The notes under the pieces are model-generated. The model was not told the DNA's origin and did not search any database. It saw only the letters and a list, made by a program, of their open reading frames with translations. Made by a program: the position numbers and the translations under genes. A DNA stretch of 64,000 nucleotides. It comes from an uncultured Clostridia bacterium (GTDB lineage Bacteria; Bacillota; Clostridia; Christensenellales; Borkfalkiaceae). Within the stretch, counting starts at the first letter, position 1; the number at the start of each line of letters is the position of its first letter. The stretch spans positions 378-64,377 of the forward strand of contig CANQUN010000003.1 in assembly GCA_947627065.1 (NCBI GenBank). Reading direction: 5' to 3'. Below, one piece after another: positions 6,787-54,699 of this stretch.

Positions 6787-6835
6787 CTTGGCGCCTCCAT
6801 GGGAGGAGCCGGCGCGTAAGCGCCTGAGGTGGGCA
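6787..6835 (+). repeat. two-hairpin element, solitary copy (variant with GTAA loop)
   Basis: CTTGGCGCCTCC-atg-GGAGGAGCC GGCGC-gtaa-GCGCC TGAGGTGGGCA. Same architecture as the copies at 36970, 37115, 37228, 37387, 39660, 39770, 54559 and 54653. Confidence 0.8.
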
Positions 6836-33676: not shown

Positions 33677-34199
33677 TTTTGTGTCTTAACCTAAACCTCG
33701 GTTCCGGTCGTAATCGCCCGAATGTGGCCTTTTTCTCACATTTCCGCCGCTTTTCGGCACCGCTGCCCGCCGCCGCGTCCCGTTTAACAACCCGTTCAAA
33801 CCACCCCGCAAACCGTGAATACAACACGTTGCAACCCACACCCGCAACCCATTGCAACTCACACCCGCACACCGCTCAAACCTTGTTATAATCCGCGGCC
33901 GTAACCTGCATAATCCTCGCCTTAACCCGCGGCCGAACACGCCCCCGTACGGACGATTCAACCCGCCCCGCAACACGTTGCAACCCGTCCCAAATCACGA
34001 CAGCAACATGTCGCAGCAGCCCCATAAACAAAAAAATTTTGCCGTTTTGCAAAATTCCGTCAAAAACGGTTTACTTTTTATCTTGTTTATGGTAATATTT
34101 TATAGTACCCGTCGCTTGGCTTTGCGGGAACTCTGACGCATTGCCCCGGTCTCGGGCGTATCACGGGCATACCGCCCAATAAAAACGGAGGAATTGAAA

Positions 34200-34463
34200 A
34201 TGGAAAAGGAACTTAAGCAGTCGATCATCGCCGATTACGCGAGGCACGAGGGAGACACCGGTTCTTCCGAGGTGCAGATAGCGTTCCTCACCGAGAGAAT
34301 CAACCATCTCAACGAGCATCTCAAAGCCAACCCGGGAGACAAGCATTCCCGCCGCGGCCTGCTCAAGATGGTCGGTAAGAGAAAGGGTCTGCTCGACTAT
34401 CTCAAGAAGACCGACCTCGAAGGTTACAGAGCCATCATAGCCAAACTCGGTCTGAGGAAGTAA
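34200..34463 (+). CDS. rpsO: 30S ribosomal protein S15
   Basis: [60 protein letters not shown] 34187-34191 is 8 nt before ATG 34200; the track's start at 34194 is a TTG only 2 nt after the SD. Confidence 0.95.
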
Positions 34464-34504
34464 TTCTCCCAAGGAGAAATACTCCCGCCATAATTCAGAG
34501 TGAA

Positions 34505-34537
34505 AGGGGGTCGGTGTTTTCCGTCCCCCTGTTTTTT
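34505..34537 (+). terminator. intrinsic terminator after rpsO
   Basis: AGGGGGTCGG-tgtttt-CCGTCCCCCT followed by GTTTTTT. Confidence 0.75.
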
Positions 34538-34733
34538 GAAAAAACGGAAAAAGCCGCCCAAAACGCGCATTATTCCGCAAAAAACCCGCCCGCGCCTCGG
34601 GCATGCGCCGCGCAAACCAAACGCGCAGGAATCTGGCACGAAACGCCAAGGCAATCCTAAAACGCGACGGGCGGAGATATAAATAAAAAAACGATAAAGA
34701 GTTAAAAGCATAAAGAGTAAAAAAGGAGATAAG

Positions 34734-36833
34734 ATGCTGGAAAATTACAGAGTTTTCAAAACAGAGATCGGCGGCAGAGAAGTAACCGTCGAAACGGGCA
34801 AGTACGGCGGACAAGCCAACGGTTCCTGCCTCATAAGATGCGGGGACACCGTTGTCATGGTCAACACCTGTATGAGCGAAAAACCGAGAGACGGAATGGA
34901 TTTCTTCCCCCTGTCGGTAGATTATGAAGAAAAGATGTACGCCGTCGGCAAGATACCGGGCGGCTTCAAAAAGAGAGAGGGCCGCGCGAGCGACAAGGCC
35001 ATTCTGACCTCCCGCCTCATCGACAGGCCGATAAGGCCGCTCTTCCCCAAGGGCTTGTTCAACGACGTTACCGTCACGGCAACCGCCCTTTCGGTGGATA
35101 CCAACATTCCTCCCGAACCCTTCGCCATGCTCGGCAGTTCGGTCGCCCTCAGCATTTCGGACATTCCGTTCGCAGGCCCCACGGGATCGGTGCTCGTGGG
35201 CATGGTAGACGGTAATTACGTCATCAACCCCGATTCCGCCCAGAGAGAAAGAAGCGCGCTTTCCCTTTACCTTTCCGGCACCAAGGAAGCCATAATGATG
35301 GTTGAAGCGGGCGCCAAGGAAATAAGCGACGACGAGATGGTGGGCGCCATTCTCTTCGGCCATGAAGAAATCAAAAAGCAGTGCGCTTTCATAGAATCCA
35401 TCGTCGCCGAGGTCGGAAAACCCAAGAGGGAGATGGAACTTTACCACGTTCCCGAAGATCTGGACGCGGCCGTCCGCGCCTACGCTTCCGAAAAACTCGA
35501 TTGGGCGCTTGACACCTTTGACAGGCAGATCCGCCAGACCCGTCAGGACGAAGTGGAAAAGGACTGCATCGAGCATTTTGCCGACGTTTACGAGGGAATG
35601 GAGAGGGAAATAAAGGATTCTCTCTACTACATAACCAAAGAGAAGGTCCGCGCCAAGATAACCAACGGCGGCGTCCGCCCCGACGGCAGAAAGTTGACCG
35701 ACATCAGACCCATCTGGTGCGAACACGGCGTCCTGCCGAGAGTTCACGGCTCGGGCGTGTTCACGAGGGGACTCACTCAGGTTCTCACCACCTGCACCCT
35801 CGGCACCATAAGCGAAGTGCAGAAACTCGAAGGTCTCGACGACGAACAGTACAAGAGATACCTCCACCACTACAACATGCCCGGTTACGCTTCGGGCGAA
35901 GCCAAGCCCCTGCGCAGCCCCGGCCGCCGCGAGATAGGCCACGGCGCCCTTGCCGAACGCGCGCTCGAACCCGTCATTCCTTCCGAGGACGAGTTCCCCT
36001 ACGCCATAAGGCTGGTGTCCGAAGTTCTCTCCTCCAACGGCTCCACCTCTCAGGCCAGCGTCTGCGGCTCCACCCTCGCCCTCATGGACGCGGGCGTTCC
36101 CATCAAGGCGCCCGTCGCGGGCATAGCCATGGGCCTTATCAAGGACGTGGACAGCGGCAAGATTTCCATAATGAGCGACATACAGGGTCTTGAAGATTTC
36201 CTCGGAGACATGGACTTTAAGGTAGCGGGTACCGCAAAGGGCATAACCGCCATCCAGATGGATATAAAGATCAAGGGAATTGACGAAACCATTCTCCGCA
36301 AGGCCATATCGCAGGCCAACGAGGGCAGGCATTTCATTTTGGGCAAGATGCTCGAATGTATCCCCGAACCAAACAAGGAACTTTCCAAATACGCCCCCAA
36401 GATCATAACCTTCACCATCAACCCCGACAAGATAAGAGAAGTCATCGGCTCGGGCGGCAAGGTTATCAACAAGATTATAGAGGAAACGGGCGTCAAGATA
36501 GACATAACCGACGACGGCAAGGTCAACATAGCCACCTACGGCGAGGACATGACCAACGCCAACAGGGCAAAGGCCATAATCCTCTCCATAGCCAAGGATC
36601 TCGAAGTCGGCGACATGTTCATCTCCACCGTCGCGAGAATACTCCCCAAAGTCGGTGCTTTCGTCGAACTCTCCCCGGGTAAGGACGGCATGATTCACAT
36701 CTCCAAGATGAGCGACCACAAGATAAACAGCGTCGAGGACGTCCTGTCCATAGGCGACACCGTAAAGGTCGAAATCATCAAGATAGGAGAAAAGGGCATA
36801 GACCTCAAACTCCTCGAAAAGATGGACAACTGA
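34734..36833 (+). CDS. pnp: polyribonucleotide nucleotidyltransferase (PNPase)
   Basis: Two RNase PH domains, then KH and S1 domains (GDMFISTVARILPKVGAFVELSPGKDGMIHISK). AAGGAG RBS. Confidence 0.97.
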   Translation: MLENYRVFKTEIGGREVTVETGKYGGQANGSCLIRCGDTVVMVNTCMSEKPRDGMDFFPLSVDYEEKMYAVGKIPGGFKKREGRASDKAILTSRLIDRPIRPLFPKGLFNDVTVTATALSVDTNIPPEPFAMLGSSVALSISDIPFAGPTGSVLVGMVDGNYVINPDSAQRERSALSLYLSGTKEAIMMVEAGAKEISDDEMVGAILFGHEEIKKQCAFIESIVAEVGKPKREMELYHVPEDLDAAVRAYASEKLDWALDTFDRQIRQTRQDEVEKDCIEHFADVYEGMEREIKDSLYYITKEKVRAKITNGGVRPDGRKLTDIRPIWCEHGVLPRVHGSGVFTRGLTQVLTTCTLGTISEVQKLEGLDDEQYKRYLHHYNMPGYASGEAKPLRSPGRREIGHGALAERALEPVIPSEDEFPYAIRLVSEVLSSNGSTSQASVCGSTLALMDAGVPIKAPVAGIAMGLIKDVDSGKISIMSDIQGLEDFLGDMDFKVAGTAKGITAIQMDIKIKGIDETILRKAISQANEGRHFILGKMLECIPEPNKELSKYAPKIITFTINPDKIREVIGSGGKVINKIIEETGVKIDITDDGKVNIATYGEDMTNANRAKAIILSIAKDLEVGDMFISTVARILPKVGAFVELSPGKDGMIHISKMSDHKINSVEDVLSIGDTVKVEIIKIGEKGIDLKLLEKMDN

Positions 36834-36838
36834 TGACA

Positions 36839-36866
36839 ATCCGCGGGAGTCATCCCGCGGATTTTT
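36839..36866 (+). terminator. intrinsic terminator after pnp
   Basis: CCGCGGGA-gtca-TCCCGCGG ATTTTT. Confidence 0.85.
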
Positions 36867-36969
36867 GTATCCGAAACCCTCCGCTTTTGCGAGAAAAAGG
36901 CCACTTCTTGCTTTTTTCGCTATCCCGTCCCTTGGCCCCAACCCCAACACAACCCGCGCACCCGTACCT

Positions 36970-37557
36970 TTGGCCCCTCCCGAGGAGGGGCCGGCGTGCA
37001 CGCGCCTGAGGTGGGCAACGTACCCCAAAAACCTCATTTTTGTGAGATTCAGGCTGCTTTTGCCTCTACTTCGCCCATCAACCCGCGCCGCCGCTCTGAT
37101 CACTAAACACTAACTTGGCCCCTCCCGAGGAGGGGCTGGCGCGCACGCGCCTGAGGTGGGCAACGAACCTCGCCCATCAACCCGCGCCGCCGCTCTGATC
37201 ACTAATCACTAAACACTCGCCACTAACTTGGCCCCTCCCGAGGAGGGGCCGGCGCGCACGCGCCTGAGGTGGGCAACGTACCCCAAAAACCTCGTTTTTG
37301 TGCGATTCAGACGGCTTTTGCCTCTATCTCGCCCGTCAACCTGCCTCGCCGCTCTGATCACTAATCACTAAACACTCATCACTAACTTGGCCCCTCCCGA
37401 GGAGGGGCCGGCGCGTAGCGCCTGAGGTGGGCAACGAACCCCAAAAACCTCGATTTTGCGCGATTTAGGCGGCTTTTGGGCTAATCATACCCTTTAACCA
37501 AACCAACAATCTCAACGGTTTTGGTGTACCCTCGCCCATCAACCCGCGCCGCCGCTT
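36970..37557 (+). repeat. tandem array of 4 composite units (two-hairpin element + ~25-nt word + CTCGCCCATCAACCCGCGCCGCCGCTCTGATCACTAA..ACTAAC segment)
   Basis: Two-hairpin copies at 36970, 37115, 37228 and 37387 (unit lengths 145, 113, 159 nt). Word copies at 37037, 37295 and 37454. C segments at 37069, 37169, 37328 and a partial one at 37531. Confidence 0.85.
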
Positions 37558-37650
37558 CCTTACAGCCCCAAAAGCAACCCGCCAACCAGCGGTAATAAAC
37601 GCGGACGCCCCGCCGTATAATATACCGATTATCGAATTATAAGGCGAGAA

Positions 37651-38364
37651 ATGGGTATATTATTAAAGGGCCGCAGGCTTGCGGCCGCGTCCAATCTGCT
37701 GCTCATCGTAATAACGCTCACGGTTGCCGCCGTGTGCTTCATTCCGCAGCCCGCTGCCACCGTCTCCGCGCCCGCTCCTTATACCTGCGGCAACAGGCAG
37801 AGCAACAAAGTTTCGCTCATGTTCAACGTTTACGAAGGGGCGGAACAAGTGGGCGAAATACTCGATATTCTGCGAAATAGGGGACTTAAGGCCACTTTCT
37901 TCATGGGCGGGTGCTTTGCCGACGACCACACTGATCTGCTCGTGCGCATAGCGGCGGAGGGGCACGAACTTGCCAACCACGGTTACTTTCACATCGCGCA
38001 GGACACGGCGGACGAGGAGAGGAACCGCGAGGAAATAGAGAGCACGGATAAACTGATAAGAGCGGCAACGGGCGTAAAGCCCGTGCTGTTCGCCCCGCCG
38101 TCGGGCGCGTACGGCCCCGCCACGCTTAATGCCGCACGGCAACTCGGCTACTTCGTCGTGCTCTGGTCAAAGGACACGATAGATTGGAAGTACTCCGACC
38201 CCGACAAGGTGTACACCCGTGCGACGGACGGAATCAAGGGGGGAGACCTCGTGCTCATGCACCCCAAACCGCACACCGTGCAGGCGCTGCCGCGCATACT
38301 CGACAGGCTCGCCGCGCTCGGTCTCGTGCAGACAACTGTTTCAGAAAATATTTTCGGAGAATGA
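37651..38364 (+). CDS. polysaccharide deacetylase (NodB-homology; YlxY/PdaB-like)
   Basis: N-terminal TM, ATFFMGG, HELANHGYFH, APPSGAY. pnp-deacetylase-M16 peptidase synteny as in B. subtilis pnpA-ylxY-mlpA. Confidence 0.85.
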   Translation: MGILLKGRRLAAASNLLLIVITLTVAAVCFIPQPAATVSAPAPYTCGNRQSNKVSLMFNVYEGAEQVGEILDILRNRGLKATFFMGGCFADDHTDLLVRIAAEGHELANHGYFHIAQDTADEERNREEIESTDKLIRAATGVKPVLFAPPSGAYGPATLNAARQLGYFVVLWSKDTIDWKYSDPDKVYTRATDGIKGGDLVLMHPKPHTVQALPRILDRLAALGLVQTTVSENIFGE

Positions 38365-38366
38365 AT

Positions 38367-39596
38367 ATGGTTAAACTAAAGACATACCCCAACGGTCTCA
38401 GGCTCATCGTCAAATCGCTCGAAGGCGTGTTTTCGGTAACGGCGGGCGTGCTCGTCGGTGCGGGTTCCCGCTACGAAACGGCCGAAAACAACGGAATTTC
38501 CCACTTCATCGAGCACATGCTCTTCAAGGGAACAGAAAAGCGCACGGCGTTTGAAATTTCGGACGCCATCGACCGCATAGGCGGGCAGATCAACGCCTTT
38601 ACAACCAAGGAGACAACCTGCTATTACGTCAAGTCCACCGCCGAACACACCGAGGAAGCGGCGGAAGTCCTCGCGGACATCTTCTTCCACTCCCGCTTTG
38701 ACGAAAAGGAGACCGAACGTGAAAAGGGCGTAATCAAAGAGGAGATAAACATGTACGAGGACACGCCCGACGAACTCTGCTTTGACCTGCTTGCCGAAGC
38801 CCACTTCGGCAACAGCGGGCTGGGCGCTTCCGTCCTCGGTCCTGCGGAGAACATCGACGCCTTCACCCGCAAGGACATAGACGACTACATGGCGCGTTTT
38901 TACCTGCCCCAAAACACCGTCATCTGCTTTGCCGGCAACATAACTTTTGACGAGGCCGAACGCATCACCGACGAGTATTTTGCAAACTCCTTTCCTCAAA
39001 AAGTGGCCTTTATCCCACAGGAATCGCCCTGTCCGGTCATTTTTGGCAGAAAGGACAAGAAGAAGGAGATAGAGCAGGCGCACGTCTGTTTTGCCTACCG
39101 CGGCTGCGCTTACGGCTCGAAAGAGGTCGACTATTTCAACCTGTTCAACACCGCCCTCGGCGGCGGAATGTCAAGCGTGCTGTTCCAGAAGGTGAGGGAA
39201 GAGTTGGGGCTTGCCTACAACGTCTACTCCTTCGTTTCAACTTACAAGGACTGCGGCGTTCTCGGCGTCTACGCGGGCGTAAACCCGTCCAACCTCGACC
39301 TTGCCGTCAACTGCATTCTCGACGAAATCGCCAAATTCAAGCGCAGCGGCCTTACCGAATACGAGTTTGAACGGGCGAAGGAGCAGATAAAGGGCAACTT
39401 CATCTTCAGTCAGGAATCCAATTCCTCGCAGATGCTGCTCTACGCAAAATATCTGCTGTACACGGGCAAGATTTTCGATTTTGAAAAGAAGATACAAACC
39501 ATAAACTCGGTGGGCAGAAAAACCCTCAACGCCTTCATAAAGGACGAATTTGACATCTCCGCCTACTCCAAATCCATCGTCGCCAAGGACATCTGA
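38367..39596 (+). CDS. M16-family zinc peptidase (MlpA/YmxG-like)
   Basis: GISHFIEHMLFKGT (inverted HxxEH zinc motif). Start ATG 38367 lies 6 nt after GGAGA; ATG 38361 is the alternative. Confidence 0.88.
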   Translation: MVKLKTYPNGLRLIVKSLEGVFSVTAGVLVGAGSRYETAENNGISHFIEHMLFKGTEKRTAFEISDAIDRIGGQINAFTTKETTCYYVKSTAEHTEEAAEVLADIFFHSRFDEKETEREKGVIKEEINMYEDTPDELCFDLLAEAHFGNSGLGASVLGPAENIDAFTRKDIDDYMARFYLPQNTVICFAGNITFDEAERITDEYFANSFPQKVAFIPQESPCPVIFGRKDKKKEIEQAHVCFAYRGCAYGSKEVDYFNLFNTALGGGMSSVLFQKVREELGLAYNVYSFVSTYKDCGVLGVYAGVNPSNLDLAVNCILDEIAKFKRSGLTEYEFERAKEQIKGNFIFSQESNSSQMLLYAKYLLYTGKIFDFEKKIQTINSVGRKTLNAFIKDEFDISAYSKSIVAKDI

Positions 39597-39616
39597 CCCA
39601 GCCCTGAAACCCTCGA

Positions 39617-39818
39617 TTTTGTGCGATTCACGCGGCTTTTGGGTAACCGAACTAACACATGGCCCCTCCCGAGGAGGGGCCGGCGCGGAGCGCCTGAGGT
39701 GGGCAACGCCCCCCACAGCCAATCTGCTTCGCTGCTCTGCTCGCTAATCACTAAACACTCATCACTAACTTGGTCCCTCCCGAGGAGGGGCCGGCGCGGA
39801 GCGCCTGAGGTGGGCAAC
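39617..39818 (+). repeat. repeat cluster: one ~25-nt word and two two-hairpin elements separated by a CACTAA-rich segment
   Basis: Word at 39617-39643; two-hairpin copies at 39660-39707 and 39770-39818; GCTAATCACTAAACACTCATCACTAAC at 39743-39769. Confidence 0.8.
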
Positions 39819-40020
39819 GCCTCCAACCCGACCCGACAGCCCTTTTTTGTAAGGAGCGGCTGTTTGTCTCGCCCCCATCAAAGGCTCTCGATTATATAAA
39901 AACCCCCGATAACCTGCGAAAAAGCCCACTTATTCATCTTGTAAAGCCTCTTGTCCCGCCAAACCCAAAAACCAAACCCAACAACCAAAACCCGCCAAGC
40001 CGTTACCCAATCCAAACTCA

Positions 40021-54558: not shown

Positions 54559-54699
54559 TTGGCGCCTCCTCGGGAGGAGCTGTCGCGGAGCGACTGAGGT
54601 GGCCCTCAAACAATCCGTCAACCCCACCGACACTCGGGCAACCGCGCCCGACTTGGCGCCTCCTCGGGAGGAGCTGTCGCGGAGCGACTGAGGTGGGCC
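54559..54699 (+). repeat. two copies of a sequence variant of the two-hairpin element (94-nt period)
   Basis: 54559-54605 and 54653-54699: TTGGCGCCTCC-tcg-GGAGGAGCT GTCGC-gga-GCGAC TGAGGTGG(C/G)C. Confidence 0.8.

Follow-up and report, generated by a model that had tools for sequence, protein, structure and literature searches.

A probable local amplification of a species-specific interspersed repeat between pnp and a deacetylase gene in an uncultured Clostridia bacterium

A tandem array of composite repeats downstream of pnp

The DNA analyzed here is a 64,000-nucleotide stretch, referred to as the window (C3:378-64377), from the genome of an uncultured Clostridia bacterium that comprises 1.95 Mb in 104 contigs and has a G+C content of 53.7%. 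In this window, pnp, which encodes polynucleotide phosphorylase (PNPase), is separated from a downstream polysaccharide deacetylase gene by an 817-nt spacer (36834-37650), and 588 nt of that spacer are occupied by an array of four head-to-tail repeat units. We consider it probable that the array is a cluster of an interspersed repeat, specific to this species, that was amplified locally and in tandem, similar in kind to bacterial interspersed mosaic elements (BIMEs) and neisserial intergenic mosaic elements (NIMEs), and that it represents a selfish or structural DNA repeat that is not dedicated to pnp. The position of the array next to pnp is coincidental, and the array itself is an ordinary case of a known phenomenon.

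The units of the array, which are 145, 113, 159 and ~170 nt long, were delimited by inspection of the sequence, with a repeat finder and by unit alignment (Table 1). Each unit opens with a two-hairpin element of 50-51 nt, the core, which is usually followed by a module of ~48 nt named the word (ACCCCAAAAACCTCGTTTTTGTGCGATTCAG.CGGCTTTTGCC; units 1, 3 and 4) and then by a third module, mod3, consisting of CTCGCCCATCAACCCGCGCCGCCGCT and then CTGATCACTAA(TCACTAA)ACACTC..CACTAAC. An initial annotation of this DNA had described four head-to-tail units of 113-159 nt, each with the third module and one of them without the word. The four units and the missing word of unit 2 are borne out by the unit alignment, but unit 4 lies above that size range and has a 49-nt unique filler followed by just the initial 27 nt of mod3, whereas units 1-3 have mod3 whole. 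The BLAST copy number drops to 1 within the filler, over 37487-37527. None of the three motifs (core, word and mod3) occurs in 100 dinucleotide-preserving shuffles of the window.

The consensus of the core is TTGGCCCCTCC-CGA-GGAGGGGCY, which forms a 9-bp hairpin (hairpin 1), followed by GGCGC-loop-GCGCC, which forms a 5-bp hairpin (hairpin 2), and by the tail TGAGGTGGGCAACG; it can also be given as GGCCCCTCC-CGA-GGAGGGGCY...GAGGTGGGC. The tail is the best-conserved segment of the core, and its CTGAGGTGGGCAAC is nearly invariant. Among the copies, pair 25-35 of hairpin 2 reads G-C 112 times, T-A 19 times and C-G 5 times, and pair 6-20 of hairpin 1 reads C-G 117 times and T-A 8 times and is broken in ~15. 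Judged from the genomic copies, these compensatory changes in both stems indicate selection on structure.

Distribution of the core in the genome

Searches of the whole genome with the core show that it is repeated throughout: a strict pattern matches 114 times, and nhmmer gives 148 hits. The core hits fall into 86 clusters (38 singletons, 38 doublets, 6 triplets and 4 quadruplets), among which the pnp array is joint largest; ten clusters have three or four cores. The other arrays adjoin frr, clpX, phoH and genes for pyridoxal-kinase-like, TetR-family, ABC-transporter and pilin-like proteins. No functional theme was found among the flanking genes, and RNA-metabolism genes are not enriched. Most copies lie outside predicted genes (107 of 121, with 32 at contig edges counted), and the 14 copies scored as genic are calls by a crude self-trained gene finder. 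Seven copies are in divergent spacers. According to the same gene finder, coverage by genes is ~80% of the genome, which is low for a bacterium of that size.

Three subtypes of the core are present genome-wide. Subtype t1 is the two-hairpin form, as in the pnp array. In t2, GNC-GAACGGAGTGA-GNC takes the place of hairpin 2, and its 3-bp stem co-varies. Subtype t3 is a short form (CCCCCTCC-CGA-GGAGGGGG-ATTCA-GGGGGTGGGCAAC, with the tail also given as GGGGGTGG) that has ~42 copies and is usually inverted, tail-to-tail with t1 or t2. The t3 doublets end in GTTGCCCACC...GGTGGGCAAC and recall REPINs or the type A/B pairs of TMECO elements, as seen at C30:16401-16725, C33:16662-17073, C14:161-582 and C5:2044-4071. 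Truncated half-cores with a T-rich run (GGCCCCTCCCGAGGAG(GGACC)TTGTTTATTTTCC) are also found, in one to three tandem copies upstream of full cores; those in the C66:3345 region, at C74:4229-4527 and C55:126-700, and in the C10:29734 region are intrinsic-terminator-like by score.

The cores have a strong strand polarity. Between co-oriented genes, sense and antisense copies number 53 and 3 for t1 and 7 and 0 for t2, and t3 has no bias (8 and 9). When clusters of two-hairpin-type cores are counted, 38 are sense and 5 are antisense (p=2.5e-7), and every one of the 62 pairs of adjacent cores has the direct orientation. With a single exception, the gene strand is also the dominant contig strand; the GC skew is weak, and local repeats dominate it. 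Because the gene strand and the dominant contig strand coincide almost everywhere, replication and transcription are not separable as sources of the bias. The gene-strand bias suggests that the top strand of the core is probably the lagging-strand template. In only 21 of 61 clusters does a terminator-like hairpin separate the first core from the stop codon upstream. Since the remaining ~40 have no intrinsic terminator before the first core, many cores are probably transcribed within 3' untranslated regions (UTRs). Sense-strand intergenic DNA near the arrays is C-rich and G-poor (for example, CAACCACCCGCACACGACAAATCCCCACACACACCCC).

The word is likewise a dispersed repeat. It measures 25-35 nt (GTTTTTGTGAGATTTAGGGCACTTTT; variant GTGAGAAAAAGGCCAC) and has ~495 nhmmer hits in 1.95 Mb; in the window, copies are located at 36877-36920, 37037-37060, 37295-37318, 37454-37477 and 39617-39640. 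A further nhmmer family, modD, has 374 hits, 277 of which overlap the word family. Both orientations of the word occur, with 96 copies in convergent spacers versus 22 in divergent ones, and the word may be linked to gene 3' ends; the copies in the pnp spacer are in the minority orientation. The module mod3 has nine hits genome-wide, with a core adjacent at every inspected site, and its behavior is that of a passenger between cores and not that of an element in its own right. Its heptamer tract, (TCACTAA/ATCACTA)n, has from ~2 to 4 copies depending on the unit (37198-37217, 37357-37385 and 39744-39768), and we infer that this variation reflects small-scale slippage inside the larger repeat.

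Absence of the array from relatives

Related genomes contain the genes that flank the array and do not contain the array. Relatives of the PNPase place the genome in an uncultured Christensenellales lineage from gut or rumen; the best of them are 92-93% identical, and some are labelled Christensenellaceae or Candidatus Borkfalkiaceae. The gene order rpsO-pnp-deacetylase-M16-ArsR-uvrC is conserved in relatives, and comparison of the locus among related genomes, also suggested in the initial annotation, found no core there in relatives with this order. The core pattern has no match in 40 relatives (six genomes of the same genus and 34 others) or in 80 orthologous pnp loci, and a looser pattern likewise has none in the genus. 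The word, searched with a single pattern, is present in 168 copies here versus 2-25 in each of the six congeners, and in none of the genomes outside the genus.

In relatives that keep both genes adjacent, the pnp-deacetylase spacer is mostly 100-190 nt long. The closest congener (L104; PNPase 93% identical) has a spacer of 323 nt with one word-like copy and no core. A terminator-to-promoter gap of 130-320 nt has become one of 817 nt here. The ~40 nt that immediately precede the start codon of the deacetylase gene form a block conserved in L001, L002, L104 and L103, the last of which is a Logan contig, and the TATAAT motif and ribosome-binding site (RBS) in this block mark a probable promoter region of the deacetylase gene. 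With this conserved -10/RBS block on its 3' side and an intact terminator on its 5' side, the array sits in the gap between the pnp terminator and the probable promoter of the next gene. The genomes compared here indicate that the array was gained after the species split from its congeners.

Related cores exist elsewhere in the order. Over 301 of its genomes, the looser pattern CCYCTCC-N3-GGAGRGG-N2-30-GGTGGG gave 410 matches in G081, 39 in G240, 20 in G314 and 1 in G223; the lone match in G017, whose tail differs, is probably due to chance. G081 belongs to another Christensenellales family, and some of its 410 related cores (CCCCTCC-GTG-GGAGGGGGTAGGGGGTGGGG) are arrayed in tandem, with a period of 124-126 nt and spacers of two types that alternate (L100, G081:C1, 380-1133 and 4537-4900). 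The architecture of these arrays is the same as that of the pnp array.

Searches of IMG/VR with the core pattern and of phage and plasmid records with unit 3 (blastn) gave no match, and a phage or plasmid origin was rejected on these results. In JGI metagenomes the core has one hit, which we judged to be a chance match. Neither the PNPase nor the deacetylase protein is recorded elsewhere in identical form, and the collection holds no PNPase of 93%-100% identity. The sole other public trace of the species is L103, a 996-nt contig from SRR27728186 with a deacetylase that is 98% identical. L103, aligned to window positions 37570-37690, stops 13 nt from the 3' edge of the array. Such an end is what a repeat at this position would produce if it also interrupted the assembly of a second sample, and it is silent on the number of units.

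Growth of the array

Several observations bear on how the array arose. Cores differ at a mean of 3.9 positions within an array versus 6.6 between arrays (permutation p<0.0005), units 1 and 3, which are spaced 258 nt apart, share 92% identity over 144 nt, and the inter-core segments are 68-92% alike between units. The similarity of cores within arrays, the identity of units 1 and 3 and the exclusively direct orientation of adjacent cores speak for local duplication, or for gene conversion among direct repeats. The suggestion in the initial annotation that the spacer could be a hotspot for expansion of a mobile repeat agrees with the data: the core occurs genome-wide, it is missing from congeners and from orthologous spacers, and the cores in the array are closer kin to one another.

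The core entered this lineage after the split from its congeners and settled where selection tolerates it, in the space that separates the pnp terminator from the probable deacetylase promoter. In the scenario that we propose for its growth, the cluster would have expanded as cores in direct repeat underwent unequal recombination or replication slippage with one another. Such events between cores, combined with slippage of the heptamers, would account for the alternating unit types and for the 258-nt double-unit periodicity. What is copied or tolerated may be a single DNA strand that folds into hairpins and perhaps into a purine-motif triplex bridged by a hairpin, like those described for BoxC/TMECO. 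Effects on neighboring genes, such as changed terminator-promoter spacing or new recombination substrates, would be a by-product.

Some results weigh against local amplification of an interspersed repeat. A mobilizing enzyme was not found. Only two pairs of inverted cores lie within 6 kb; one pair brackets a ThiF-like gene and the other brackets four ordinary genes, with no transposase in either case. No target-site duplication or empty site is definable at base resolution, the intergenic DNA of congeners being too diverged. The strong sense-strand bias would also fit an RNA function, as would the number of clusters with no terminator before the first core (~40 of 61), and the direction of replication is read from gene-strand bias alone. 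Finally, in ~78% of two-hairpin cores one triad of the triplex register is mismatched (A opposite G-C), and the tail and the purine arm show no significant co-variation.

A search with PF01797 detected two identical IS200-like Y1 transposase copies, at C2:15321-15677 (-) and C36:299-655 (+), each scoring 133.8 bits. These copies have their own end hairpins, CCACGCGATAGTCGCGTGG and CCACCCGCTACGCGGGTGG, which are unrelated to the core. They are the sole Y1 transposases that this search found, and mobilization by a REP-associated tyrosine transposase (RAYT; REP, repetitive extragenic palindromic) or by an IS200/IS605 element was rejected.

Alternative explanations

The core could instead be under selection as a DNA structure. 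According to this explanation, cores in single-stranded DNA fold as hairpin-bridged purine-motif triplexes, and the array is kept as a barrier to replication or transcription, an insulator or a recombination hotspot, as proposed for TMECO and NIME arrays. A class II intrastrand triplex consists of a 5' pyrimidine arm, a purine arm and a 3' reverse-Hoogsteen arm, with G.G-C, A.A-T or T.A-T triads in register and loops of 1-6 nt (PMC4666352). The order of elements in the core, namely pyrimidine arm, loop, purine arm, bridge and G/T tail, matches this class (PMC4666352). Subtype t3 gives 8 of 8 triads with loops of 3 and 5 nt, and the invariant T of the tail, which faces the A of GGAGG, is suited to a T.A-T triad rather than to a Watson-Crick pair. 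The tail is also the most conserved part of the core, and related cores in other Christensenellales retain the mirror relation. However, t1 cores fit 6 of 7 triads, with 7 of 7 reached in 23 copies that have the purine arm GGAGGAG, and their bridge of 16-17 nt, which includes hairpin 2, is beyond the defining loop range. The lack of significant co-variation between purine arm and tail is a further difficulty, and the PIT elements of E. coli showed no promoter, terminator or in vivo replication effect in experiments (PMC4666352). Likewise, the absence of the array from all congeners leaves no conserved function at this site. We therefore regard retention of the array for such a structure as unlikely. 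The folding tools that we used consider Watson-Crick and wobble pairs only, and triplex formation is, from the arm order and triads, a plausible property of the core.

A further alternative is a role in RNA. The initial annotation had proposed that an array directly downstream of pnp could act as a series of roadblocks to 3' exonucleases or as a processed multi-copy small-RNA locus. According to this explanation, the array would be transcribed by read-through from pnp, and its hairpins would serve in either of these ways or as stabilizers of the mRNA. REP elements stabilize upstream mRNA in E. coli. A transcribed function would be consistent with the sense orientation of 38 of 43 clusters, with the compensatory changes that preserve pairing in both hairpins, with the closing pair of hairpin 1, which is G-T in 114 copies and would be a tolerable G-U pair in RNA, and with the roughly two thirds of clusters that have no terminator before their first core. 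At the pnp locus, the evidence is against it. The good pnp terminator described in the initial annotation was confirmed by a terminator scan (11-bp stem, 36838-36863, and TTTGT) and is the sole terminator-like site on the + strand within 36700-37750. Since the array begins ~100 nt beyond this strong terminator and ends before the deacetylase -10 box, it is poorly placed to protect the 3' end of pnp mRNA. Relatives with the same pnp operon have no array, which indicates that pnp does not need it. On the basis of these relatives and of the arrays of similar size at unrelated genes, pnp-specific regulation was rejected, and the connection to pnp drawn in the initial annotation is not supported. 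In addition, the seven cores in divergent spacers and the lack of enrichment of RNA-metabolism genes near arrays are not what an RNA element would predict. No promoter-like site was found in the array, and the core hairpins there have no U-tract and are followed by G/C-rich sequence, which places them outside the definition of an intrinsic terminator. A search of Rfam 15 gave no match at E<=1 in 36800-37700, the lone hit in the 30-45 kb region being a chance match to RAGATH-18 at 38498; a known RNA family, ribozyme or riboswitch was rejected on this result. Overall, a roadblock or small-RNA role at the pnp array appears unlikely on these grounds, and a genome-wide side effect of cores at the RNA level, such as 3'-end protection, is possible.

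A more speculative proposal is that the core is the recognition structure of a single-stranded-DNA amplification system that needs no transposase gene of a known type. Such a system would copy the core and adjacent DNA one-way on the lagging-strand template and would build oriented arrays, including those of 124-nt period in G081. We give this proposal little credence. If it were true, the arrays would record a new way in which repeats propagate, instead of resulting from ordinary slippage.

It is very improbable that the four units are a mis-assembly, whether an expansion or a chimera, in a short-read metagenome-assembled genome. The assembly is in 104 contigs, 26 of its 208 contig ends are <=150 nt from a core or word hit, and in the second public assembly of the species the contig is interrupted only 13 nt away from where the array ends on its 3' side. 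On the other hand, the units differ from one another by many substitutions and by whole modules, and nine other internal loci have comparable arrays in the assembly. Exact repeats within the array do not exceed 38 nt, and none of its 55-mers is found again in the genome, so that ordinary k-mers and reads of 100-150 nt can span the array unambiguously. Collapse or expansion during assembly is thus unlikely as judged from the sequence, with the possible exception of added units identical to existing ones.

A coding repeat is ruled out by the 1-nt changes in loop length that distinguish copies and by a codon model that finds no gene in the array, and a CRISPR array is ruled out by inter-core segments that are themselves repeat families (word, ~495; mod3, 9) and by the flanking pnp and deacetylase genes.

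Comparison with known repeat families

The array behaves like a BIME or NIME but belongs to neither family, and the core, although laid out like BoxC/TMECO, differs from them in sequence, loop size and strand behavior. As with the BIMEs of E. coli, Pseudomonas and Stenotrophomonas, the core is a short, GC-rich imperfect palindrome that is extragenic, species-specific and present in >100 copies. Its 114-148 copies place it within the usual description of REP/BIME sequences (extragenic imperfect palindromes of 20-40 nt in >100 copies). The pnp array, like BIMEs, is a mosaic cluster that includes other short motifs and has stems kept by compensatory changes, and inverted pairs of two core types elsewhere in the genome are reminiscent of the Y and Z REP units. 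Unlike BIMEs, the pnp array has cores that are all head-to-tail and do not alternate (direct pairs, 62 of 62), there is no RAYT gene between inverted cores, the core has a second hairpin and a conserved single-stranded tail, and the host is a Firmicute.

The BOX element of Streptococcus pneumoniae, boxA-boxB(n)-boxC, is a single bounded, intergenic element with no known transposase. It is similar in that it is a modular repeat of a Firmicute whose internal modules may be present, absent or multiplied, as with the word that is lacking from unit 2, a likeness that concerns overall architecture. It is different in being one bounded element and not an array of a repeated core.

In NIMEs, 20-bp dRS3 repeats (ATTCCCN8GGGAAT) are placed between RS elements of 50-150 bp, and the arrays vary in unit number between genomes (PMC1797815). 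Likewise, the pnp array has a short, conserved palindromic repeat with intervening segments of 50-110 nt that are themselves repeat families, in units of ~110-160 nt. The comparison made here was across related species, all of which are without the array. The two have architecture alone in common, since the core does not contain the dRS3 motif ATTCCCN8GGGAAT, and no phage or recombinase is known to use the core.

The BoxC, PIT and TMECO elements (Hoyne et al. 2000; Holder et al. 2015, PMC4666352) share with the core a G/C-rich class II arm order. They are also intergenic, highly conserved and patchy among close relatives, one mismatched triad is common, and there are two subtypes that form inverted pairs, which in TMECO are types A and B (PMC4666352). 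The consensus of TMECO is CCCTCNCCC-N3-6-GGGNGAGGG-N3-GGGNGAGGG (PMC4666352), and the core, with CCCCTCC/GGAGGGG/GGTGG in place of CCCTCNCCC/GGGNGAGGG, does not conform to it. Further differences are the 14-nt hairpin that forms loop 2 of the array cores, the tandem composite arrays and the strong strand bias of the cores, TMECO being without such bias.

These results remove an unsupported link between a repeat array and pnp autoregulation and provide a well-delimited case of mosaic repeats filling intergenic space in uncultured gut or rumen Clostridia. The repeat combines a structure under selection, a strong strand polarity and no recognizable transposase. Its arrays break short-read assemblies and could serve as strain markers, and the core is a compact substrate for the study of BoxC/TMECO-like triplex folding and spread, a question that dates from 2000.

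Features of the locus

The features of the locus are listed in Table 1. A second, smaller array is located 3' of the M16 peptidase gene, and the initial annotation had described the same module order as recurring there, at 39617-39818. The modules are indeed alike, but their order is word, core, mod3, core, with the word preceding the core.

Table 1. Coordinates of features at the pnp-deacetylase spacer and the second array (window positions)
Feature	Position	Strand	Basis
pnp (polynucleotide phosphorylase, 699 aa), upstream flank	34734-36833	+	Pfam RNase_PH x2, PNPase, KH, S1
pnp intrinsic terminator, 11-bp stem, 4-nt loop, TTTGT tail	36838-36871 (stem-loop 36838-36863)	+	Terminator scan
Word-family copy (GAGAAAAAGGCCAC variant) directly after the pnp terminator	36877-36920	+	~25 BLAST copies; nhmmer family modD
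Putative degenerate lead-in similar to the first part of mod3 (CAACCCGCGCACCCGTACC)	36951-36969	+	Sequence read and unit alignment versus mod3
Unit 1: core 36970-37020, word 37021-37068, mod3 37069-37114 (short heptamer tract)	36970-37114	+	Sequence, repeat finder, unit alignment
Unit 2: core 37115-37165, mod3 37166-37227, without word	37115-37227	+	Sequence, repeat finder, unit alignment
Unit 3: core 37228-37278, word 37279-37327, mod3 37328-37386	37228-37386	+	Sequence, repeat family D4, alignment
Unit 4: core 37387-37436, word 37437-37480, filler 37481-37529, mod3 start 37530-37556	37387-37556	+	Sequence, repeat family D5, alignment
Deacetylase leader with putative promoter: TATAAT 37616-37621 and AAGGCGAGAAATG (RBS plus start codon)	37612-37650	+	Alignment with L001, L002
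Polysaccharide deacetylase gene (237 aa), downstream flank	37651-38364	+	Pfam Polysacc_deac_1
Second, smaller array 3' of M16 peptidase gene: word 39600-39658, core 39659-39708, mod3 39709-39769, core 39770-39819	39600-39819	+	Repeat finder, alignment

A 980-aa open frame on the - strand (34161-37103) is antisense to the whole of pnp and reaches into unit 1. It is most likely spurious, since the self-trained codon model chose pnp on the + strand (log-odds 350) and found no minus-strand gene there.

Further copies of the core are present in the window at 6788-6835, 54559-54581 and 54655-54675. Two of these have a compensated variant of hairpin 2, GTCGC...GCGAC, together with a changed hairpin 1 (AGCTCCTCC...GGAGGCGCC).

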